Positions 21,201-51,999 of a stretch of 64,000 nucleotides of DNA are shown piece after piece (the stretch's first letter is position 1; each line of letters starts with the position of its first letter). The stretch comes from a virus. The stretch lies in the IMG/VR virus record IMGVR_UViG_3300037297_000135, positions 66,484 through 130,483 of that record. One strand, 5' to 3'. The notes under the pieces were generated by a model that saw only the letters and a program-made list of their open reading frames with translations, was not told where the DNA came from and did not search any database. Position numbers and translations under genes: made by a program.

Positions 21201-21472
21201 AATATTTTGGATATGTGCATACAAAATTAAAAGCCCATAAAGATTTGGTTATGGTTTTAGATATAAAAATTAAAAATTCTGTTAGAGTTCATGTTTGTTA
21301 CGTAAATTCTGGTGTTCATAAAACTTATACAATCTATAAAAATAAATTTTATAAACACCAGAACTATGACAACATATATTTTAATCCAAGATTTAAAATT
21401 TTTGACTTAATATACATTAAGTCAATTGAAACAAATAAATATGGTACTTTTTTAAACAGCTTCATGTTTTGA
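18266..21472 (+). CDS. dnaE: DNA polymerase III alpha subunit
   Basis: PHP HLHDEHS/NHG/DTH, RGSVGGSL, DIDIDF, HPAG, KFDILGL, FGYNH. Confidence 0.95.
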   Translation: MKTYTVFHLHDEHSNCNGYYDSITPFKEYLKLAKAQNMNAIALSNHGNIFEWVQKKQACDKLNIKYIHGIETYMDIIDMGKQSFHIGLYAKNYDGVMELNRLASKSTLKDGHFYKTPRIYFSELKQTSKNIIITTACLQSALWQLRKFENFTNEILEFLSSISDRSFLEIQYHNHIEQIEYNKLLLSYSKKYKIPLIAGTDTHSANSYYAECRKILQKSNNSYYGNEDSFDLTWKTYDELIECFKQQNSIPEIEFLKAIENTNVLANMVEPFELNYEFKYPGLYKNPKEKFLAAVDRNYKTKLNKGIIKENQEYIDRQKEELEAIEKQGMESFLYFMHELVEYCKKNNIIYGRCRGSVGGSLIAYILDIIDLDPIKFKTIFSRFCNADRISLADIDIDFAPEDRGKIYKYIINRFTTRNTAYISQFGKLKDRGTLDVLGRGLDMPLDEIKIIKDEYETLLFDYKKIIQESINLEEHKIENDIDNHEKFVVIINDIIIIAKLNILYDNYIKLKEKYKDVFYYFDGLKNTIISKGNHPAGIIGSPIDLIQHIGVWYKDGDENFPVSVCSMKPIESLNFCKFDILGLKMMGIIKDTYKDIGIKYHKSHEMNWEDKNIFDEIIQSKVGCFQFEGEYAFEQLKKFKPRNIFDITLVTAAIRPSGASYRDKLLNREFNRNPSKEIDELLVDNYGYIVYQEDTIKFLQQFCGFSGSEADTIRRAIGKKLLDVIKDNTEKITKGYQSTLKKDFETAKKEITEFLKMLINASRYQFGYNHALGYTLNTCTGIYLRHYHPVSFVKSYLNRADKNEDYVDGFNLAQLKGIKIESICFKYSYGKYIYDENTKTMYKGLKSVKYINNISDEILNDLYNQKYQNISDVFERFLNHFNKKQIGILIDLNYFKNFGNPNYLTECFKIFQKYFGKKQFKKDALLEIEKTWFEKIPHKKTDKLYKGFDSKDLINYIIKNALTKKSYDYFDLLKKEFEYFGYVHTKLKAHKDLVMVLDIKIKNSVRVHVCYVNSGVHKTYTIYKNKFYKHQNYDNIYFNPRFKIFDLIYIKSIETNKYGTFLNSFMF

Positions 21473-39753: not shown

Positions 39754-40405
39754 ATATTTTATATTCAGCTTTTTTACATGCAGCTTTTAAGTTTTTCTCA
39801 TTATGTAAAAAATTATATGTTTGATTTTCAGCAAAACTAAAATAATTATCATTCCCGATAATTATATGATCAATTAAATCAATATCAATACTAAAAAAAG
39901 TATTATCTAAATTTTTTGTCAAATTTATATCAGCGTTTGAAGCTTCTAATTTACCACCTGGATGATTATGGGACAAAATAACTTTTTTTGCATTATAAAA
40001 TAATGCATTTTTTGCCATTTCTCTTTTATATGTTTTACATTCGTCTATTGTTCCGTTGCTTATGATTTTAGTTCTTATAATATCATTAGCATTGTTTAAA
40101 AACATACATACTATATATTCTTTATCATTTTTATGTTTAAAAAAGTTTTTCATGTATTCCCCAGCTATTGAAGTGCAATATATATTATATTTGTTTTCTG
40201 CTTTTAAATTTGTATATGTGTTAAATAATTTAATTAAATCATTTATTTTTTCTTTTTGGTTTTCTGTAATATTTAAAATTTTTGAATATTCAAATAAATT
40301 ATTGATTGAATTATCTTTTAAAAAATTTTCAATCTTTTTTTCATTTATTCCAGTAAAACCAGAAAATAATTTTATTATATTTTTTGTATCTTTTTTAATT
40401 TGCAT
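39749..40405 (-). CDS. radC: RadC-like JAB/MPN domain protein
   Basis: E...LSHNHPGG...SNAD...T...LIDHIIIG. Confidence 0.85.
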   Translation of the reverse strand: MQIKKDTKNIIKLFSGFTGINEKKIENFLKDNSINNLFEYSKILNITENQKEKINDLIKLFNTYTNLKAENKYNIYCTSIAGEYMKNFFKHKNDKEYIVCMFLNNANDIIRTKIISNGTIDECKTYKREMAKNALFYNAKKVILSHNHPGGKLEASNADINLTKNLDNTFFSIDIDLIDHIIIGNDNYFSFAENQTYNFLHNEKNLKAACKKAEYKIF

Positions 40406-40438
40406 AGTTTTTGCATTCTCCTTTTAATTCATTGTTTT

Positions 40439-40495
40439 TTTAAAACATACTAAAACATACAATTTTAAAAATTGTACGCTCTATATAGCTTTAAA
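40439..40495 (-). repeat. intergenic bulged hairpin element
   Basis: TTTAAAG-C-TATAT-AGAGCGTACAATTTT/AAAATTGTATGTTTT-A-GTATG-TTTTAAA. Confidence 0.9.
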
Positions 40496-40856
40496 CTTTT
40501 ATATTTATTTGTATTTCAATTTCACTATTACTTAAAAATCTAAACAAATTTTCTTTTTTAATCCAATTGATTATATTAGGTTTTTTTGGGTCAAGTGAAT
40601 ACAAAAAAGCAATATAATCAAAACTATTCCAAGAACATTCAAATATTTTTAAATATTGTTTTCCACAGATTTTTGTATCAATGCATCTTTCTTTTTGTGT
40701 ATTGATTGTAAATAATATTTCTTTAATTTGTATATAATCATTAGTAACCATATCAAAATAATGATATATTTTTTTGTTATCTTTATAAAAATATTCGATA
40801 TCTTCTTTATTTATAAAAGTAGTTTGATTTTTTTCATTTACAATAATTGTTTTCAT
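40491..40856 (-). CDS. hypothetical protein (first gene of the array)
   Basis: Start moved to MKTIIV by the AAGGAG RBS. Confidence 0.55.
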   Translation of the reverse strand: MKTIIVNEKNQTTFINKEDIEYFYKDNKKIYHYFDMVTNDYIQIKEILFTINTQKERCIDTKICGKQYLKIFECSWNSFDYIAFLYSLDPKKPNIINWIKKENLFRFLSNSEIEIQINIKV

Positions 40857-41039
40857 TTTTATCATTCTCCTTATATTTTGTATTGTTAAAACCTGCAAAA
40901 CAACAAAAACAAAGTTTTTGAAACAATGTTTTGCAAGCTTTATACAATACAAAAAAGATTTTATACAATTCAAAAATACAGAACTCCATAAAACCTTTTT
41001 GCATTGTTAAAGGAGAAAAGGAGAAATATTTCGAATTTT

Positions 41040-41985
41040 GCGACGTGTAGAAAATAGCGTAGTCTACAACTGCCTATTTTCCGTGGCTTTAGTTTTTATG
41101 TTGCTTGTATGTAGCTACATAACAACAAACTTCCAACATATACAATATACTATATCTCTAGTATCTTTTTTTCGTTACTGTTTGTTAATTGTTGTTGTAT
41201 CAAAGTGTTTACGCCTATTAAATCAAGTATACTCAATTTAATAAAATAACGGTTTTCACGTTACATTATACATGTCAATATCCCTATATGTAACAAAATT
41301 CAGCTACTACACGACTTTTCAAGCGACTACTCTTTTCATACCAGTTTCAAGACTTGTTTCGTTACTGTTATCAAGTCTTAAACTCTCTTTGTATTTCGTA
41401 ACACAGTATTTTACTAGATTAATGTCATATCCTAAAAAATGAAACTTCCATAACTGTAAAATGATTGAGTTTTCGTGCTTTGCTGTCTTTTATTAATTTT
41501 TCAATGTACAAAAATAGCATTGTTAAACGGTTTTATTGTTTACACGTTGTTTGTGTTATTCTCTTTCCCCAATAATCTAAGTCGTTAATTCGAGCTGATA
41601 CACGATTTTAACTAGCATGCAAGTTTATATAAGCTTGCAATTTTTCGTTGAATCGAGTCAACGTGGTAATTTCAATCGATTGACATAGTGTATACACTGT
41701 ATAGCCTTAGATTTAAGCATAACGGTCAATTAAAATTGACTCGATTAATGTCATATCAATTTTTATGTATCTAACAAAATCGAGTTCATTAGTTACACCA
41801 CAAACAACTTTATCCAAAATGTACATTTTTGACATAAGTTTTCTAATATCCCTCCATTCCTGTCAAAAGTACGGATTTAAAGTCAATGCTATTAATTTTT
41901 CAAAGAACAAGTCAATTTACTTAAAAGCTATCAAAGATGTCATGTCGACTTGTTGTCCGTCGACACCGTAATCATATAACGCCTA
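41040..41985. ncRNA. candidate large structured ncRNA
   Basis: No credible ORF, visibly higher GC than flanks, several 7-11-bp helices and internal 13-15-bp direct repeats. Confidence 0.45.
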
Positions 41986-42551
41986 AAAAATTTTGAAAAT
42001 GTTGATTTTAAATTGTTTTTGATTGTTTTTTTGATGTTTGATTTAAAATGCTTAATCATTTTCCTTTTTTCGCTTTTTTTTGTTTATTTTTGAGTTTTTT
42101 GAAAGAATTTTTGTTTTTTGGTTTTTTGTGTTTTAGATTTGATAACCTTTTTCAGATTTTAAAATTTTTTGTTTAAGTTAAATTGTATGTTTTAATTTTT
42201 TTGTTTGTTTGAATGCAGATTGTGTAAAGGTTTCAAAAGTTTGAATTTTTGCAGAAAAAAAATAAAAAAAGTTGACTGAATAAATATAGGTTGAATGGAT
42301 TAAAACATTTAAAACAGTGTGATTAAATAGGTTTTTGAAGATGAAAAAATTTTTTTGAATTTTGTCCAGATTTTGAAAAACTGGAAGTTTGAAAAGCCGA
42401 TTTTTTTAATGATTTTGTAATGTTTGAAATTGGATTGTAAAACAGTAATGTTTTTATAGGTTTTTTGTGTTTGAATTGTAATATTTGAATAGTTGTTTTT
42501 GCTGTATAATGGTTATATCAACAAAATAAAATTTAAAGGAGATTAAAGATT

Positions 42552-42710
42552 ATGTATAAAACATTCGCTGATTTGGCAACAGCAGCATTAAACAAAGGAT
42601 ATAGAATTTACAGAAAAGATAATGAATTGTATTACGTAAAGGATTTTGTAAATGATAGATTCGCTGAAAATGTAACAAAAAGCGGGATTATAAGATTGAT
42701 AAATAAGTAA
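42552..42710 (+). CDS. 52-aa hypothetical protein (not in ORF track)
   Basis: MYKTFADLATAALNKGY...; upstream TGTATAAT, AAAGGAG RBS, downstream terminator. Confidence 0.65.
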   Translation: MYKTFADLATAALNKGYRIYRKDNELYYVKDFVNDRFAENVTKSGIIRLINK

Positions 42711-42722
42711 TGGAGATATGTT

Positions 42723-42749
42723 AAGGCCTTGATGTAAGGCCTTTTTTTT
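42723..42749 (+). terminator. Rho-independent terminator
   Basis: AAGGCCTT-GATGT-AAGGCCTT followed by a T run. Confidence 0.7.
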
Positions 42750-43833
42750 ATGCCATTTTTTAAGGATATATGATGTATATAACATTGCTGGTATACAGCA
42801 TCATATATATCAATATATCAATTAATATTTAATGTTGTATTGATTGTATGTACCATATCAATTAACTATATCTGTTTAAATTTTAATCGATTGTATATGC
42901 CTTTTTGAGCTTTAAAACCATATATGTAAATTGTAACATATTGCATATTAATGCATGTATATGTATATATGCATATATGATATACGTGTATACAGCTTAT
43001 ATAGTGTATTTGATGTATGTTTGTATACAGATTAGATTTGTATGTTTAAGCAGCTGTAAAAAGATACCCTATATAGGTATATAAAATACTGACTGTATAC
43101 AGATATGCTGATTGTATTCAAACGCCTTGAAATAGCTGTTTTGAGACAAATAGACATTGTTTTGTATTTTGTAGTTCAGATAGTACACATTGTATTGTGT
43201 TAAGCTAATACAGTACAATGTATCGTATTTGAATGTGTGTTGTGTAGTGTTTCAGTAGGCTTCATACGTTGGATGATGGACAATGAATGATTTTGAATGG
43301 TTTTAGGTTTTTGAAGTTGATACATGATAGAAATGATACGATGTTAAGTGATGGACAATAGATAGGATATAGGATTGAACAGGTTTCAGACGTTGTACAG
43401 ACATGGATAGAACATTTGTTTGATATGTATGTTTTGATAATAACAATTTGATATTAACACAATGATAATAACAGAATGATAATATCAAAGTGATAATATG
43501 ACCAGGTCATAAGATGAGGTCATATGATTAGGTAGTATATGAAGTTGGATGATGAACGATGAAGTAATATGATGAAATATTGCGAAAGAGTGTAACGAAT
43601 TGCATTGTATAAATTTTGCGTATCTTTTTAGGTAAAATTGCTTCCTATATAAATCAAAAAATACAGCAAATACAAATGTTTATGTTTTATCCCAATTTTG
43701 ATGATTCTATTTAATTACTCATTAAATTGACTGAAACAATTGAAATGCTGATGAATACAGAGTTATATAATAATAGCCCCTACTTTACGTTTGTAAAAAT
43801 ATGGAGATACCCATTATCCCACCTACCTCCTTG

Positions 43834-44100
43834 AATCTCTGTTCAAGGATATTTTAAAATGTAGTTTAGATATATATATTTAAATTCAAAAATCCATCGT
43901 CTTTGACTCGGGCAAAATTTAAAATGTAGTTTAGATATATTTCAAATTCAAAAAAACTACAATCTCCGTTCAAGCATATTTTAAATCACAGTTTAGATAA
44001 ACAAAATCCAAAATTCAAAATTCAAAAAAAATCCCTGAATCTACGTTCAAGGATTAAATCAAATATAGTTTAGATTTATATTCAAAAACAAAATTCAAAT
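43834..44100. repeat. four imperfect ~62-77-bp direct repeats
   Basis: AGTTTAGAT at 43863, 43928, 43990, 44067; AATCTNNGTTCAAG at 43834, 43961, 44038. Confidence 0.75.
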
Positions 44101-44109
44101 TCAAAAAAG

Positions 44110-44682
44110 TTATTTAAAGTTATTCCAATCTACTTTATTTTCATCTAAATACACAAAAAACATTTTCCCTAAATCACCTTGATTTTCATAAATACCTCTA
44201 TTATCTTTTCCAATTTTACAAAATGTATAAATCCCATAATTCACATGCAAACCTGTTCCATCTTGAAAGTCTATCAATGTATAATTGAAATTTTTATTTT
44301 TCAAATATTTTTCAAAACTCAACAAAACTTCTTCAGTTAAAAGTTCCTTACTTGTTACAACTCTTGCATATGTTCCTATTCTTTCTGTATTCAATCCATT
44401 CATTAAAGGTCTTTCTTGCAACTGATTTTGCAACAAATATTTATTCATATTTTCCATCTCCTTATTTTCTATTTTTTTAGTTTCAATTATCTGTATTTTA
44501 GTTATTGTTGGTTTTGGTGTTTTAACTGAGGTTTGAGTATTTGATTCATATTTATTTATTGTATTTACAGCTTGTGTATTTACATAAGTTCCATCTGACA
44601 ACAAATCAATTATTGCATAAATTAATAAAAAACAAATCATTAAAAACTTCATACCATCGATTATTTTAAATAAATTATTCAA
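44110..44682 (-). CDS. membrane-anchored hypothetical protein
   Basis: N-terminal TM helix, Thr/Pro linker. Confidence 0.55.
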   Translation of the reverse strand: MNNLFKIIDGMKFLMICFLLIYAIIDLLSDGTYVNTQAVNTINKYESNTQTSVKTPKPTITKIQIIETKKIENKEMENMNKYLLQNQLQERPLMNGLNTERIGTYARVVTSKELLTEEVLLSFEKYLKNKNFNYTLIDFQDGTGLHVNYGIYTFCKIGKDNRGIYENQGDLGKMFFVYLDENKVDWNNFK

Positions 44683-44723
44683 TTTGCATTCACCCTTTTT
44701 TCAAATTTGTTCAATTTTACTAT

Positions 44724-45089
44724 TTAAAAATTTGGTAGATTAATGCTTACAAAAATACATTTTACCCAGTTATATTTTTCAACTATTTTTATTGCTTCTT
44801 TTTCTTTCTGTTCATTATTTAGCAACCCAAAATTTTCATCATAATTATTATCAGTATCAATTATATCTTCCACTAATGTTTCAAAGTCATTTTCTTTAGA
44901 ATAAATCATTTCATCATCATCATACCAATAATAATCTATTCTTGATTCTCCCCAACTACCAACAAAAAAATTACTATCATCATTAGAAACTATTTCACCA
45001 TCAACTATCGGAAGTATTGGTAGTTCTGGATTTTCTTTTATTAATTGTAATAAATCATTTACATTTTTTTGTTGTTTATTCATATTCAA
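44724..45089 (-). CDS. hypothetical phage protein
   Basis: LIKENPELPILPIVDGEIV block. Confidence 0.55.
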   Translation of the reverse strand: MNMNKQQKNVNDLLQLIKENPELPILPIVDGEIVSNDDSNFFVGSWGESRIDYYWYDDDEMIYSKENDFETLVEDIIDTDNNYDENFGLLNNEQKEKEAIKIVEKYNWVKCIFVSINLPNF

Positions 45090-45364
45090 AACCTATCCTT
45101 TTTTTTGTTGTTTATATATATTTTACCACAATTTCAGTGAATTTGAAAAATCAAATTTTCGTAGATTTTTTTGAAATTGTTTCGATAATTTGAAAAACAA
45201 TCAAATATATGGTATAATATGTATAAAATTGAACAATTTTGAAAATTGAAAATCGATTAAATATTTTTTTCGATATATGTACTCTGTTATAGAATAAGAG
45301 GGGCGAAACTTCAAAAAATCGTATTGTATGTTTGTGATATCAATGGATTTCAGGTTTTTTCAAA

Positions 45365-45416
45365 AGTTAAAGATTTTAACTTATCCCCTTGTTTTGAGTT
45401 AAAGTTTTTAACTTAT
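45365..45416. promoter_or_regulatory. pair of 20-bp near-palindromic direct repeats upstream of the RepL-like gene
   Basis: AGTTAAAGATTTTAACTTAT (45365) and AGTTAAAGTTTTTAACTTAT (45397). Confidence 0.7.
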
Positions 45417-45460
45417 GATTTAAATAATATTAATTAAATTTAATAGGGAGATATAATTTT

Positions 45461-45970
45461 ATGTCAAATATAATAATGAACACAAAAACTGGAGAGATAG
45501 ATAAAGAAATAAGAGATGGTGATATTATCAAAGTTATCAGGAAAGAGAGTCTTGATTATTTAGATACTTATGAAACATGGGTTGTTGAAAGATTTTTTAA
45601 AGGAAATATTAATGAAATTGAAAAGCTGCTTACTGAATTAACTATAGGTGAAAAAGCATTATTGTTTTCCATTGTTCCATTTATTGGTTATAATGATTGT
45701 TGTATAAAACATAGAAACAATTCGTGTATGAATATTGAAGATATCATTCAAAAAACTGGTATTTCGAAACCAACTGTTCATAAATCAATTAATTCATTAA
45801 TTAAAAAAGATATATTATACAAAGGCAAAAACAGTAAAGAAGTTCAAATATTTATTAATCCCTGGTTATTTTGCAAAGGCAATAGAATTAATAAGGTTTT
45901 AAAAACAATGTTCAAGAACTACAAAATCAAAGTAATGAACAATACAAAATGGAAAGATTTAAAACAATGA
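45461..45970 (+). CDS. RepL-like winged-HTH protein
   Basis: GISKPTVHKSINSLIKK HTH and FINPWLFCKG motif. Confidence 0.55.
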   Translation: MSNIIMNTKTGEIDKEIRDGDIIKVIRKESLDYLDTYETWVVERFFKGNINEIEKLLTELTIGEKALLFSIVPFIGYNDCCIKHRNNSCMNIEDIIQKTGISKPTVHKSINSLIKKDILYKGKNSKEVQIFINPWLFCKGNRINKVLKTMFKNYKIKVMNNTKWKDLKQ

Positions 45971-47158: not shown

Positions 47159-47754
47159 ATGATTTTTTAAGTTCAAATGATAATTTTTTTGATGATATGA
47201 ATTCTGTATATGGTTATGGTTTTGGTTTTGGCGATGCTGTTGGTTCTGGTAGTTTTGTTGAATCTAGTTCTAGTTTTGATTTTTGTTTTGATTCAGTTAA
47301 CAATTATAAGGTTCATTTAATTGACTGCATTCCAACAATATTAGAAAAAATCAAAAAAACAAAAGGCTTTTACATAGCAAAAGGAAAGATTTTAAAAAAT
47401 GATTTCACATTTCAAGACACATTTGTTGTAAAAAAAGAAGCTTGTTTTGCACACGGTTTAAATTTAAAACAAGCTTTCAAATCTTTGAATGAAAAGCTTT
47501 TTGACAAATTAGATGCAGGACAAAAAATGGATGAATTTTTCAAACACTTTGATTTCAACAAAAAATATGATGCTAAAGATTTTTTCATTTGGCATGGTAA
47601 ATTAACTAAAAGTTGTGAATTTGGCAGAAAATTTTTTGTTGAAAACAACAACATCAATATGAATAAAAAATATAGTATTAAGGAGTTTGTTGATATTTGT
47701 AAAGACCAATATGGTTACGAAATAATATCAAAGATATTAGATTATGAAAATTAG
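47146..47754 (+). CDS. phage protein with Gly-rich N-terminal repeats
   Basis: GYGFGFGDAVGSGS; overlaps the previous gene. Confidence 0.55.
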   Translation: MEYLNDFLSSNDNFFDDMNSVYGYGFGFGDAVGSGSFVESSSSFDFCFDSVNNYKVHLIDCIPTILEKIKKTKGFYIAKGKILKNDFTFQDTFVVKKEACFAHGLNLKQAFKSLNEKLFDKLDAGQKMDEFFKHFDFNKKYDAKDFFIWHGKLTKSCEFGRKFFVENNNINMNKKYSIKEFVDICKDQYGYEIISKILDYEN

Positions 47755-48049
47755 TAGAGGTATGATTGTAATCACAGAGTTTGAGGAAAAAGTCATTCCA
47801 TATATTGTTTTATACAATGAATCTACACAACTGCTTGATATTCATTGTGCAAATTGTGGCAAATTATATATGTTTGGATGTACTAAAAAGCAAGTAAATG
47901 ATTTTTTAAAAGAATTAAAAGTATTTGAAATAATCAATATTAACAAATGGATTGCTGAAAAAGGCTATAAGGTTCATGGTTGCAAAAAACCTGTAACTAT
48001 TTCTAAAACACCTCAAGAATATGAAGTTGAATACAAAAAAATTGAATAA
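47744..48049 (+). CDS. hypothetical protein
   Basis: CANC motif. Confidence 0.5.
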   Translation: MKISRGMIVITEFEEKVIPYIVLYNESTQLLDIHCANCGKLYMFGCTKKQVNDFLKELKVFEIININKWIAEKGYKVHGCKKPVTISKTPQEYEVEYKKIE

Positions 48050-48088
48050 AAAAGATGATGTTATCCAAAATAGTAACATCATCTTTTT
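48049..48088. terminator. bidirectional terminator
   Basis: 15-bp IR AAAAAGATGATGTTA/TAACATCATCTTTTT between convergent genes. Confidence 0.8.
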
Positions 48089-48151
48089 ATTTGGAAATCT
48101 CAATATGATATTAGAAAAATAAAATACTATTTCATTATACCATATTATATT

Positions 48152-48397
48152 TTAATCGTCACCCATATTTTTTATAGCTTCATTGTATTCTTCTATGCTT
48201 TCATCTAAAACATCATAAAAATCATCACTTATATTATTTTTATCTAAATAATGTTTTTTGCCTGATATTATTATATGTTTTTCTTCATAATTATCAATTC
48301 CATTTAAATTATTAAAATTCATCAATTTTTTCAAATTACGACTACAAATTCTACATTTTATTGTATTTAAGTTTATACAATTCACACATTTTGACAT
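48152..48397 (-). CDS. small Cys-containing hypothetical protein
   Basis: CVNC, CRIC; AAGGAG RBS. Confidence 0.5.
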   Translation of the reverse strand: MSKCVNCINLNTIKCRICSRNLKKLMNFNNLNGIDNYEEKHIIISGKKHYLDKNNISDDFYDVLDESIEEYNEAIKNMGDD

Positions 48398-48744
48398 TTT
48401 AAAAATTCTCCTTTCAAAAAGTATTTACTTCAATTTAAATTTATGGTATCATATTTTCTAGGAACTCTGCAAAACGACTAAAAAAAGTTCGTCTGTGGCT
48501 TATGAAATTTAGTGTCATCACTACTAAATTTATTATTATTTTGTAAATCAAATTACTTGTGAAGCTTGTAAAAATACCAATTAAAAGAGATTTAATACTG
48601 AAGATATTAAATCTCTTTTAGTTTTTAAATTTTTTATATTTGTATACAAGCTTTTGTAGCTTTTTATGATATGTTAATCAATGATTTCTATTTGTTTGAT
48701 GTTTCCATTGTCTGTGTAGCATTGATATTGTTTAAATTTGTTTT

Positions 48745-49143
48745 TTAAATATTTTCTAAAAAAACATCAGTTATTTCATTCAATATATCAGTAACAATCT
48801 CTTCTTTAGATTTGTTTATTTTATTTTTTTCATATTGAACTGTGTTAAATATCATTAACCTTCTAACAGAACTTTTCAAAACATCCATCATAGTTTTATA
48901 ATCCACATATGACAATGTATCTGATAATATTCCATCATTTACATCCATACTTATGTACATATAGATACTTGTGTCTAATAAATTTGATTCTGTACGTTCT
49001 TTATCTATTAAAACTGCAGCATTTTTTAATATTTTTCTTATTTTATTTAATTTTTCTTTATTTTCTGTAGATAAATTTTCTTTTGAAACATCTACAAATC
49101 CAGAAACCGTTCCATTATCATGTATTACTTTATCAAATTTCAT
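48745..49143 (-). CDS. hypothetical protein
   Basis: AGGAG RBS. Confidence 0.55.
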   Translation of the reverse strand: MKFDKVIHDNGTVSGFVDVSKENLSTENKEKLNKIRKILKNAAVLIDKERTESNLLDTSIYMYISMDVNDGILSDTLSYVDYKTMMDVLKSSVRRLMIFNTVQYEKNKINKSKEEIVTDILNEITDVFLENI

Positions 49144-49230
49144 ATTAAATCTCCTTATTTATTTTATTTTTTTTATTTATTCAATACTTTCTACTGTTTG
49201 TACAGGTTTAATATTTTTAAAATCATTTGT

Positions 49231-49326
49231 TTATTGTCCACAAGATTTACATATTACAAAAATAACAATAATTATTACAAATATCAGGATTACTACAGAT
49301 ATGTTTTCAATACGATGTTTTTTCAT
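49231..49326 (-). CDS. 31-aa single-TM peptide (not in ORF track)
   Basis: MKKHRIENISVVILIFVIIIVIFVICKSCGQ; ATGA overlap with the YkgJ stop. Confidence 0.45.
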   Translation of the reverse strand: MKKHRIENISVVILIFVIIIVIFVICKSCGQ

Positions 49327-49823
49327 TTAACTATCTCCTTTGTTTCCATTTTTTTTAGTAAAGTTTCTGCATATTTAAAATTTAATTCATTTATACCAGA
49401 TTGAAAATATTCTATAAATAAATCTATATTATTTTTAGATTCTTTATCTAATTTTATTTGATTAAAAATATCTTTAACTACATCAAAAATATTATATTTA
49501 TATTTTTTAACATCAATATTTACATCTTGGTTTGTATCACAATGAAAGCTTTTACAAATAAATGGTCGATGTTTATAAATCACACAACGTTTTTCGTTGT
49601 TGTTAAATATACATTTTAAATCACAAATCTCCATATTTGCTTGTTCGATTTTATTATTTATTTCACTTTCAATATGATTCATAAGTTTTTTATTGTTTAA
49701 AACAAGTTTAACCAATTTTTCTTTTTCTTGTTTTGTAATCATTGTTGTTAAATCACAGCATTCATTACAATTTTTACAATATTTATTATTCATTTTTTCT
49801 ATATTTAAATTAATATCTTCCAT
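49323..49823 (-). CDS. YkgJ/CxxCxxCC cysteine-cluster protein
   Basis: CKNCNECC...C.F...CVIYKHRPFICKSFHC. Confidence 0.75.
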   Translation of the reverse strand: MEDINLNIEKMNNKYCKNCNECCDLTTMITKQEKEKLVKLVLNNKKLMNHIESEINNKIEQANMEICDLKCIFNNNEKRCVIYKHRPFICKSFHCDTNQDVNIDVKKYKYNIFDVVKDIFNQIKLDKESKNNIDLFIEYFQSGINELNFKYAETLLKKMETKEIVK

Positions 49824-50400: not shown

Positions 50401-50811
50401 TCATATCTTTTCAAAATCAAAACCTACAACCAAATTATCTTTTATTTTAACATGTAAAATACTTCCATCATTACATTTAAATGATTTTATTTCAACTTCA
50501 TTTTGTATTTTTGTTTTTACCAAAAATATCTTGTCATCAAATTTATCTTTTATATATTTCAAAACTGAACTAATTTTCACATTCAAAAATCCATTTTGTT
50601 CAAGTTCATATTTATATTCTTTTGCAAAACAAATAAAACTTTGTTTTTCTGTAGTTTGAGTTTGTGATGTTGTTTTAGGTTCAATTGTTTGAGTTGGTTG
50701 TATTTGATTTTGTTCAATATTTGAATCTTTAAAAAACATAAATACAAATGTAGCAAACAAAAAAGCAAAAATCACACATGCTATAATTTGAAATGTTGTA
50801 ATTTTTTTCAT
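50401..50811 (-). CDS. membrane-anchored hypothetical protein
   Basis: N-terminal TM, Gln/Thr linker. Confidence 0.55.
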   Translation of the reverse strand: MKKITTFQIIACVIFAFLFATFVFMFFKDSNIEQNQIQPTQTIEPKTTSQTQTTEKQSFICFAKEYKYELEQNGFLNVKISSVLKYIKDKFDDKIFLVKTKIQNEVEIKSFKCNDGSILHVKIKDNLVVGFDFEKI

Positions 50812-50828
50812 TTAATCAATCCTTTTCT

Positions 50829-51251
50829 TTAATTTTTTTTGATTTCATTTATTTTTCTTGTTACTGCTTCATATCCTTCAAAAAAGCCTCCTACATCTAA
50901 GCAAAATTGTTTAAAATTGTTTATTTCTTTTTGATTTTTTTTATAAAAATCATCTAAACTTTTATCAGACTCTACAATCATATCTGTTACTTTATTCCCT
51001 GCACTCATAAAATCTTCAATCAAATCTTCAAAAGTTTTTTCTATTTCATTGCCTAAAAGCCAATCAATTGAAACATTAAAAATTTTTGAAAGTTGTATCA
51101 ATATTTTTGATTGAGGTATACACCCTCTTGATTCCCAAGAATGAATAACTGAACTGCTTGTGTTTAACAAAGTTGCAAGTTCGCTTTGATAAAGTCCTAT
51201 TTTTTCACGCAAAAATTTAATTTTTTCACCAAATTTATTTAATTTTTTCAT
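50829..51251 (-). CDS. XRE-family HTH regulator
   Basis: FGEKIKFLRE..GLYQSELA...WE...IFNVSIDWLLG. Confidence 0.85.
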   Translation of the reverse strand: MKKLNKFGEKIKFLREKIGLYQSELATLLNTSSSVIHSWESRGCIPQSKILIQLSKIFNVSIDWLLGNEIEKTFEDLIEDFMSAGNKVTDMIVESDKSLDDFYKKNQKEINNFKQFCLDVGGFFEGYEAVTRKINEIKKN

Positions 51252-51268
51252 TTGTTTAATCCTTTTCT

Positions 51269-51784
51269 TTAATTTACTAAAACATTATATATTCTTATAT
51301 TTTCATAATTCACATTCCAAATCAAATCAAATAAGTTTGATTTGATTTTATCAAATACCAAAACTGAATCACACGATGCGTTGCTTTCTAAATCATATAC
51401 AGCATTATCATCAAAATCAAATCTTCTTATTATATTATGTTGCTGTTGTTTTCCATCAGCTACTATTTTACAAAGCGATTCGGTCAAATGATATACTGAA
51501 ACTGTATTGTTTTCATATGTTGCAAAAATCTTTAAAAATTTAGTATTGGTTATTTTTGTTATTGTTATTTTTAATCCAGGTACATTTGTGTTGATTTCAA
51601 AAGGTGTTTTTATTTCTTTAGGTTGTTGAGTTTTGATTGGATTAATTTTTTCAAATTTTAATTCATTTGTTTTTTCTGGTTTAATTTCATTTGTTTCAAA
51701 TTTGTCTATATTATCAAATACTATTAAAGCCATAATAAAAAAAACAGCTAGGATAAGTGCTATAATTATTTTTTGCATATTCAA
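51269..51784 (-). CDS. membrane-anchored protein with predicted beta-sandwich (DUF4352-like)
   Basis: N-terminal TM then beta-rich domain. Confidence 0.45.
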   Translation of the reverse strand: MNMQKIIIALILAVFFIMALIVFDNIDKFETNEIKPEKTNELKFEKINPIKTQQPKEIKTPFEINTNVPGLKITITKITNTKFLKIFATYENNTVSVYHLTESLCKIVADGKQQQHNIIRRFDFDDNAVYDLESNASCDSVLVFDKIKSNLFDLIWNVNYENIRIYNVLVN

Positions 51785-51999
51785 CCAACCTTTCTAAAGA
51801 TATTATGTGTATATTATAGCATAAAAATATAATATATTTGAAATGAAAAATTTTACTTTTATGTAACAAAATTATATATATTTCAATATGGCTAAACAAT
51901 GGATTCAAAACTCCACACAAAAAATTCAAACTCCACAGATTGTATAAATTGAATAAATTGTATATACTATATAATATATAAAAAACAGGAGTTGATTTT

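Follow-up and report, generated by a model that had tools for sequence, protein, structure and literature searches.

In bacterial and phage operons, long structured 5' leaders can carry a stabilizing hairpin at the 5' terminus together with an anti-Shine-Dalgarno tract. Loop-less perfect palindromes are typical of protein-binding sites, and a mosaic pattern is common in phage regulatory modules. Structures of the large RNAs GOLLD and ROOL have been reported (bioRxiv 10.1101/2024.12.08.627333). Here, we analyze positions 41040-41985 of a 64,000-nt window that spans positions 66484-130483 (the second half) of the 130,483-bp IMG/VR record IMGVR_UViG_3300037297_000135, a phage genome rated complete whose source sample is a wetland metagenome. 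The original prediction proposed that this stretch is a large structured non-coding RNA of ~950 nt, possibly of a new class with repeated modules. Our analysis leads us to favor, tentatively and at somewhat less than even confidence, a mosaic control region that heads a 19-kb leftward operon and whose left part is a structured minus-strand leader.

The locus resembles long 5' leaders in lying on the coding strand where an operon begins, in its strong local folding (z -5.9), in a hairpin near the putative 5' end, and in a CU-rich tract that is complementary to the ribosome-binding site (RBS) of the first gene. It differs from known leaders in that it carries no recognized ligand- or protein-binding motif and matches no Rfam leader family, and in that a leader would account for only about a quarter of 41040-41985. 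Like temperate-phage immunity and operator regions, it is non-coding, lies between divergent transcription units and combines short repeated boxes with palindromes; its divergence between strains is far above that of adjoining genes, and helix-turn-helix (HTH) regulators are encoded nearby. Unlike classical operator regions, it is far longer (about 1 kb, or 3 kb with the rest of the gap in which it lies), has no repressor identified adjacent to it, and its boxes form no obvious operator array. It falls in the same size class as GOLLD and ROOL (600-900 nt) and, like them, sits in a Firmicutes-type phage and lacks coding capacity. Those RNAs usually lie beside transfer RNA (tRNA) genes in phage or prophage DNA, whereas the five tRNAs of the window, the sole Rfam 15 matches that cmscan gives there at gathering scores, come no closer to the stretch than 27712 and 59133, at least 13 kb off. 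The stretch also differs from them in giving no covariance-model match at E<=10, in its weak folding signal over most of its length, and in its lack of conservation in related phages.

Coding capacity, folding and homologues of the stretch

The stretch is non-coding. Stop codons number 17-29 per frame in all six frames, and a codon-usage score trained on 99 long open reading frames (ORFs) of the phage is negative nearly throughout even in the best frame (mean -8.5, compared to +7 to +13 for genes), which bears out the ORF-poor character that had been noted. The small ORFs of the stretch have no family matches, and none is called as a gene on the phage's own 130-kb contig; the sole small ORF on record, from one other contig of 7,960 nt, is a 40-amino-acid minus-strand ORF at 41716-41835. 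As predicted, the stretch is also richer in guanine and cytosine (GC) than its flanks (0.305 vs about 0.19-0.23). Its GC content stands at the 97th percentile of 946-nt windows genome-wide, with several structural-gene windows higher (0.31-0.335), and is the highest among gaps without a tRNA, the other gaps being at 18-21%.

We found that the strongly structured part of the locus is minus-strand 40860-41258 only. The folding energy of this segment is -97.5 kcal/mol compared to a shuffle mean of -70.2 (z -5.91), and 0 of 100 shuffles were as good. The plus strand of the same segment gives z -3.78, and the portion that falls inside the stretch (41040-41258) gives z -2.30. Over the whole 961 nt, z is -2.4 on both strands (20 shuffles). 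Farther right, the minus strand gives z -0.83 at 41259-41600 and z -1.10 at 41601-41990, and the plus strand gives z -2.05 over 41259-41990, where 2 of 20 shuffles folded equally well. A sliding scan with 150-nt segments gave a mean z in the region of -0.7 on the plus strand and -0.5 on the minus strand; the neighboring coding operon, which includes junction hairpins, gave -0.9 and -1.4. By these measures, some three quarters of the proposed RNA appears to fold much as shuffled sequence does.

We found neither a known RNA family nor a homologue in the searches performed. A cmscan comparison of 40800-44200, both strands, with Rfam returned no GOLLD, ROOL, OLE, HEARO, raiA, or group I or II intron even at E<=10, leaving the families that had been suggested as candidates without a match. 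The matches returned at that threshold were of chance-level microRNA or small nucleolar RNA kind only (E 0.13-10), one of them inside the stretch (NBR2, E 9.7, far below the gathering score). A blastn search of the stretch against phage and plasmid collections gave no match, and BLAST against 55 related IMG/VR records (16 at 90% completeness or more) gave chance AT-rich matches only. An nhmmer search of the nearest accessible relative, IMGVR_UViG_3300033549_000065 (G001), detected nothing similar. Metagenome-contig scans with an exact 21-mer from a block conserved in a second strain, and by alignment of the 52-amino-acid protein encoded in the same gap, gave no match; viral-contig scans by exact pattern or single protein gave no match or one unrelated contig. 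The gap at 123422-124991 of Clostridioides phage LIBA6276 has no Rfam match and does not resemble the stretch.

A candidate minus-strand leader and its upstream boxes

Leftward genes run from 40859 down to a tyrosine recombinase (integrase) gene at 21452, making up the 19-kb operon; the first of them starts at 40859 behind the RBS AAGGAG. Rightward genes up to 21.4 kb of the window include those for DnaB-like, RecJ and polymerase proteins. The stretch forms the left third of a gene-poor gap of 3.1 kb (40860-44110) that begins at the head of the operon, and the candidate leader would occupy its left end (Table 1). Read along the minus strand from ~41258 toward the first gene, this leader comprises a 13-bp hairpin, a 6-bp hairpin, a hairpin around the palindrome TATGTAGCTACATA, the GAAAATAG/CTATTTTC hairpin (41081-41050), a CU-rich tract (41027-41009), two long hairpins (40998-40879) and the RBS. 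Pairing of the CU-rich tract with the Shine-Dalgarno sequence is predicted in the minimum free energy structure and partly in the centroid structure. The candidate leader is thus a coding-strand site upstream of the first gene with no intervening terminator, and holds a sequence predicted to be able to sequester the Shine-Dalgarno sequence: the minus strand has no terminator-like site from 42050 to the first gene, and the sole terminator-like hairpin of the region, with its T run, is on the plus strand at 41618-41639. The hairpins at operon junctions bear only a loose likeness to the leader hairpin, which we did not use as evidence.

We compared the region over 40000-44500 with second-strain contigs from another wetland run (X2; depth ~4.7), in which single differences could be errors. 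The sequencing runs listed for the phage are three wetland DNA runs, none of them RNA; after filtering, X1 contigs leave the region uncovered, X2 and X3 cover it patchily, and nothing was concluded from uncovered positions. The non-coding stretch is a divergent allele set between nearly identical flanks: 41040-41985 differs by 5-11% between the strains, and the adjoining gene is identical (Table 1). Within 41086-41270, blocks of 49 and 34 nt are unchanged, and changes cluster at 41215-41271 (17 in 57 nt). The X2 allele of the 13-bp hairpin at 41215-41244 keeps 12 of 13 minus-strand pairs despite 11 substitutions, which include two double compensatory changes, three changes from a G.U to a Watson-Crick pair, and two in the reverse direction. 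In the 6-bp hairpin, both X2 substitutions (41154 and 41157) fall in the loop, and five of the seven indels listed at 41817-41957 lie in two hairpin loops, those of TTTTGACA and TGTCGAC. This one pairwise comparison is suggestive of conserved hairpins and, slightly, of the minus strand at the left end.

The helices and direct repeats on which the original prediction drew are all in place. The inverted repeat AATCGAGTCAA (41651)/TTGACTCGATT (41736) gives an 11-bp helix, whose arm alone is marginal compared to shuffles (P=0.078) and inside which lie two loop-less palindromes, TCAATCGATTGA and AGTGTATACACT, along with the near-palindrome GTCAATT-AA-AATTGAC. The exact direct repeats GATTAATGTCATATC (41417 and 41743) and TTTCGTTACTGTT (41170-41182, and again at 41357) are joined by a third that had been missed, TATTAATTTTTCAA (41491 and 41890). 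Perfect inverted repeats (at least 8 nt, loops of up to 120 nt) number 9 vs 3.4 expected, and there are 3 exact direct repeats 11 nt or longer vs 0.39 expected (P=0.004 for each, 500 dinucleotide shuffles). Perfect palindromes of at least 10 nt show no enrichment per kb in this AT-rich phage genome. The offsets between direct-repeat copies (326, 481 and 399 nt) make them dispersed and non-collinear, and what had been taken for repeated modules turn out to be scattered boxes of 13-22 nt whose order is not collinear, rather than duplicates of a structural module. The repeats, the AATCGAGT copies, the GTCAA/TTGAC boxes and the palindromes of the ~700-nt part to the right of the leader fit protein-binding DNA better than folded RNA.

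In the reading we favor, the operon messenger RNA (mRNA) would start inside or just right of the region, at promoter-like 41294-41265 or 41999-41971. Its first ~400 nt would be a leader made of the 5'-proximal 13-bp hairpin, three further hairpins and the two long hairpins, in which the CU-rich tract would mask the Shine-Dalgarno sequence, so that the leader sets the first gene's translation and mRNA stability. The other ~700 nt would be upstream DNA rich in boxes, or else would extend the leader with weakly structured sequence. Its dispersed boxes (AATCGAGT in three copies, nine GTCAA/TTGAC, three exact 13-15-nt direct repeats) may be sites for regulators, for example the HTH proteins encoded rightward, and rightward transcription would end at the terminator-like hairpin on the plus strand (41618-41639). 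The mosaicism between strains would fit a regulatory specificity module exchanged by recombination.

Several observations weigh against this interpretation. Promoter-like sites number 7 vs 6.5 in shuffles, which is not above chance, and the operon mRNA start was not located; because such sites are no commoner than in shuffles, that start is inferred only. The covariation in the 13-bp hairpin comes from one pairwise comparison at depth 4.7 and is only suggestive: substitutions placed at random do as well with P=0.08 when minus-strand RNA pairs are counted and P=0.027 when Watson-Crick pairs are. The CU-rich tract equally complements a plus-strand double Shine-Dalgarno sequence before a 67-codon ORF, and the hairpins at 41618-41639 and 41825-41870 pair better on the plus strand (U.G), which makes the strand signals mixed. 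GTCAA/TTGAC occurs nine times vs 1.8 expected, with eight of the nine within 41650-41920, and this enrichment is marginal once corrected for the number of 5-mers tested. No regulator has been linked to any box.

Table 1. Positions (window coordinates) of the features discussed and of the segments compared with the second strain, X2
Feature	Position	Strand	Details
Candidate structured 5' leader	40860-41258	-	Extends 219 nt into 41040-41985; first gene 40491-40859
CU-rich tract AUUUCUCCUUUUCUCCUUU	41009-41027	-	Predicted pairing with first gene's Shine-Dalgarno AAGGAGAA; plus strand is a double AAAGGAG
Hairpin GAAAATAG/CTATTTTC	41050-41081		With inner stem
6-bp hairpin	41147-41164	-	6-nt loop
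13-bp hairpin	41215-41244	-	UAUA loop; directly downstream of promoter-like site; 13/13 pairs (3 G.U) on minus vs 10/13 on plus or as DNA
Promoter-like GTTACA-18-TATAAT	41265-41294	-	10/12 matches; would start a ~400-nt leader near 41257
Hairpin AAGACTTG/CAAGTCTT	41349-41379		Arms start 41349/41372; 15-nt loop holds box TTTCGTTACTGTT
22-nt box TTTACTAGATTAATGTCATATC	41410-41431		Second copy 41736-41757, 91% identical, 15-nt exact core
21-nt box TATTAATTTTTCAATGTACAA	41491-41511		Second copy 41890-41910, 90% identical, 14-nt exact core
Terminator-like hairpin, arms TGCAAG (41618)/CTTGCA (41634)	41618-41639	+	9 pairs, one U.G on plus strand only; followed by ATTTTTCGTT
AATCGAGT(CAA), three copies	41651-41785		41651 direct, 41736 inverted, 41778 direct
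Hairpin TTTTGACA/TGTCAAAA	41825-41870		Arms 41827/41861; four indels of the other strain in loop
Hairpin TGTCGAC/GTCGACA	41943-41965		Arms 41943/41959; 2-nt insertion of the other strain in loop
Alternative promoter-like TTTTCA-17-TATGAT	41971-41999	-	9/12 matches; would make the whole stretch a ~1.1-kb leader opening with the TGTCGAC hairpin
T-rich, C-poor tract (termed an array in the original prediction)	41990-42530		Separates 41040-41985 from 52-amino-acid gene; plus-strand T 49%, C 4%
52-amino-acid gene	42552-42710	+	Sole convincing gene of the 3.1-kb gap; RBS present; terminator 42723-42743
X2 differences, gene	40437-40778		0/342
X2 differences	40836-41046		11/211
X2 differences	41051-41306		29/256
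X2 differences	41365-41555		10/191 + 24 gap letters
X2 differences	41747-42175		39/429
X2 differences	43360-43759		6/400

Alternative explanations for the stretch

A long RNA with a function of its own is, in our judgment, distinctly improbable. It would be lineage-specific, ~0.9-1.1 kb in length, transcribed from the minus strand from 41999-41971 and of a new class unrelated to GOLLD and ROOL, either standing alone or serving as a very long leader with its own function; just as improbable is a single ~1.1-kb non-coding RNA on the minus strand from ~41965 to 40875, of a fast-evolving class found in this lineage only and with its hairpins kept despite sequence drift, that acts alone (for example as a decoy or scaffold). 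Such an RNA would account for 950 nt without a reading frame in a densely coding phage, the highest GC content of any tRNA-free gap, the whole-region z of -2.4 on both strands, the excess of inverted repeats, the second-strain indels in the loops of two hairpins, and a promoter-like site at 41999-41971 with a hairpin immediately after it. It is difficult to reconcile with the lack of an Rfam match at E<=10 and of similarity in the 55 related records, the phage and plasmid collections or G001, with segment z scores of -0.8, -1.1 and -2.05 beyond the left edge that are weaker than those of the neighboring coding operon, with 5-11% strain divergence beside an identical gene, and with the absence of a minus-strand terminator for its 3' end; exact direct repeats and loop-less palindromes, moreover, are not traits of folded RNAs. 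The original prediction survives in part: the stretch is non-coding, and at least its left quarter resembles a structured minus-strand RNA in its folding and in a hairpin that stays paired after 11 substitutions. A single ornate unit of ~950 nt does not emerge from these results, since the central and right parts fold weakly, no promoter and terminator pair brackets the stretch, and a plus-strand terminator-like hairpin stands in mid-stretch. Several of the same observations would suit a largely unconstrained spacer, in which foreign or decayed DNA remains between two transcription units and the hairpins and repeats are functionless leftovers. We consider this quite unlikely. Strain divergence over the 4.5 kb compared peaks in the stretch, where 17 of the changes fall within 57 nt, the folding of most of the stretch resembles that of shuffled sequence, and no homologue was found in the collections or relatives searched; against this, decay under AT pressure should lower GC, yet the stretch is at 31% in a 23% GC genome whose other gaps are at 18-21%, no residual coding signal is present in any frame, the 49- and 34-nt blocks are perfectly conserved within divergent sequence, and repeats exceed those in shuffles.

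The conserved blocks in a stretch that is 11% divergent, the dispersed direct repeats, the inverted repeats and the loop-less palindromes could also reflect a DNA-level cis element, part of a replication origin or protein-assembly site that acts together with two features on its right, the T-rich tract and the iteron-like arrays. This explanation is unlikely, though we give it some weight, and it draws on the wider neighborhood as well: the adjoining T-rich, C-poor tract extends for 540 bp, tandem 14-, 13- and 20-bp repeats lie at 43435-43576 and 77-nt units at 43828-44109, and a RepL/O-like winged-helix protein is encoded at 45461-45970. The tandem iteron-like arrays, however, are 1.5-2.5 kb rightward and outside 41040-41985, where the repeats are dispersed. 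DnaA boxes are at background level (2 in 5 kb), cumulative GC skew follows gene orientation, and the G.U-only pairs of the hairpin at 41215-41244 make sense in RNA, not in DNA. A partition site in particular is opposed by the absence of any ParB_N or ParA-type (AAA_31) match in the 130-kb genome, in a search in which control genomes matched. An origin role for the whole 3.1-kb gap is possible; 41040-41985 itself is without defining origin features. Very improbable, finally, is a small two-helix membrane protein encoded by the 67-codon ORF (41038-41241, plus strand) behind the double AAAGGAG. Its strong double Shine-Dalgarno sequence at 41009-41027 is in its favor, as are the X2 substitutions in its first 55 codons, of which three of five are synonymous (not significant, P about 0.1) and two of five conservative, with a frameshift at 41204 that alters the tail only. 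Its codon-usage score is about -13, however, its TTG start lies 14 nt past GGAG, and its T-rich strand composition and 6% Cys are as expected of translated T-rich non-coding DNA. The ORF is not called as a gene on any contig of a 15-billion-protein collection and has no Pfam or PHROG match.

The surrounding gap and related phages

The remainder of the 3.1-kb gap holds further repeats. In the T-rich tract at 41990-42530, helical phasing of A/T tracts at 10-11 bp is non-significant (P=0.16), and intrinsic bending is not demonstrated. Within 310 nt (42791-43102), the sequence GTATACAG or its complement appears five times, compared to five times in the rest of the 130-kb genome, and another sequence, TGTATAAT, was considered as a phage promoter word and rejected, its frequency being at chance level. 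A 59-bp imperfect palindrome occupies 43175-43233 (28-nt arms 79% complementary, 3-nt center; local fold z about -4). At 43435-43576, we identified iteron-like tandem repeats comprising a 14-bp unit (TGATAATAACAAAA) in 4.6 copies, a 13-bp unit in 2.3 copies and a 20-bp unit in 1.9 copies, which make this segment a better candidate for an origin or operator than 41040-41985. Just downstream of gene 44110-44682, positions 43828-44109 contain four units of 62-77 nt, each a hairpin (TCCTTGAA...TTCAAGGA) plus a AAATGTAGTTTAGATAT box. In the X2 strain, 154 nt of this array (43845-43998) are replaced by 34 other letters, indicating that the number of units varies. Gene 44110-44682 itself (190 amino acids) has a 69-amino-acid allele, P0009, which lacks ~120 internal residues and is encoded on a small contig of its own. 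Outside the window, at 45330-45450 of the phage's own genome, a tRNA-like sequence follows tRNA-Phe; it has acceptor-like ends and a TTCGATTCTG T-arm, is interrupted by about 60 extra nucleotides, and is uncalled by ARAGORN.

The phage has a 130-kb genome with a GC content of ~23% and 15 tRNA genes, and has the large phages of Clostridioides and Clostridium as distant relatives. Its DNA polymerase III alpha shares 46.6% identity with the homologue in Clostridioides phages LIBA6276 and LIBA2945, and 48-63% with those of a large clade of contigs (120-185 kb), many of which carry a Clostridium or Clostridia label. A 123.8-kb contig encodes the closest polymerase (P0014, 63% identity); a genome-contig search gave no relative with polymerase identity above 54%.

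G001, a 128-kb genome with terminal repeats and 43 ORFs in common with this phage, likewise has a run of non-coding gaps directly after its RadC gene. One of these, at 50768-51907, is a 1.1-kb ORF-free segment of 60-110-nt RNA units with no Rfam match, in which four sigma-70 promoters that match TTGACA-17-TATAAT perfectly or nearly so, and five intrinsic terminators, are all on the minus strand. The stretch at 41040-41985 is like this segment in being ORF-free at about 1.1 kb, in having more C than G on the plus strand, in repeating TGTCAA/TTGACA, and in lying in a gene-poor zone after RadC; it differs in having no excess of promoters or terminators, and the two share no sequence similarity. 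Elsewhere in G001, segments 44095-45176 and 47712-49373 are C-poor non-coding arrays with many palindromic ATATTTAAATAT boxes and runs of GTATG and TGTAGTG. Judged by its sequence in the two phages, the neighborhood is a conserved non-coding control zone with non-conserved contents.

If the stretch is indeed a mosaic control region with a leader at its left end, it would represent an ordinary kind of feature of unusual size, in a phage lineage without a cultured member. It would also show that GC-rich DNA without ORFs can occur in a very AT-rich phage without being a large ornate RNA; for phage RNA discovery, the entire 3.1-kb gap and G001's clearer cluster of small RNAs would be better targets than this stretch alone. 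For the phage itself, the region would mark the position of a switch for a 19-kb block of unknown genes.

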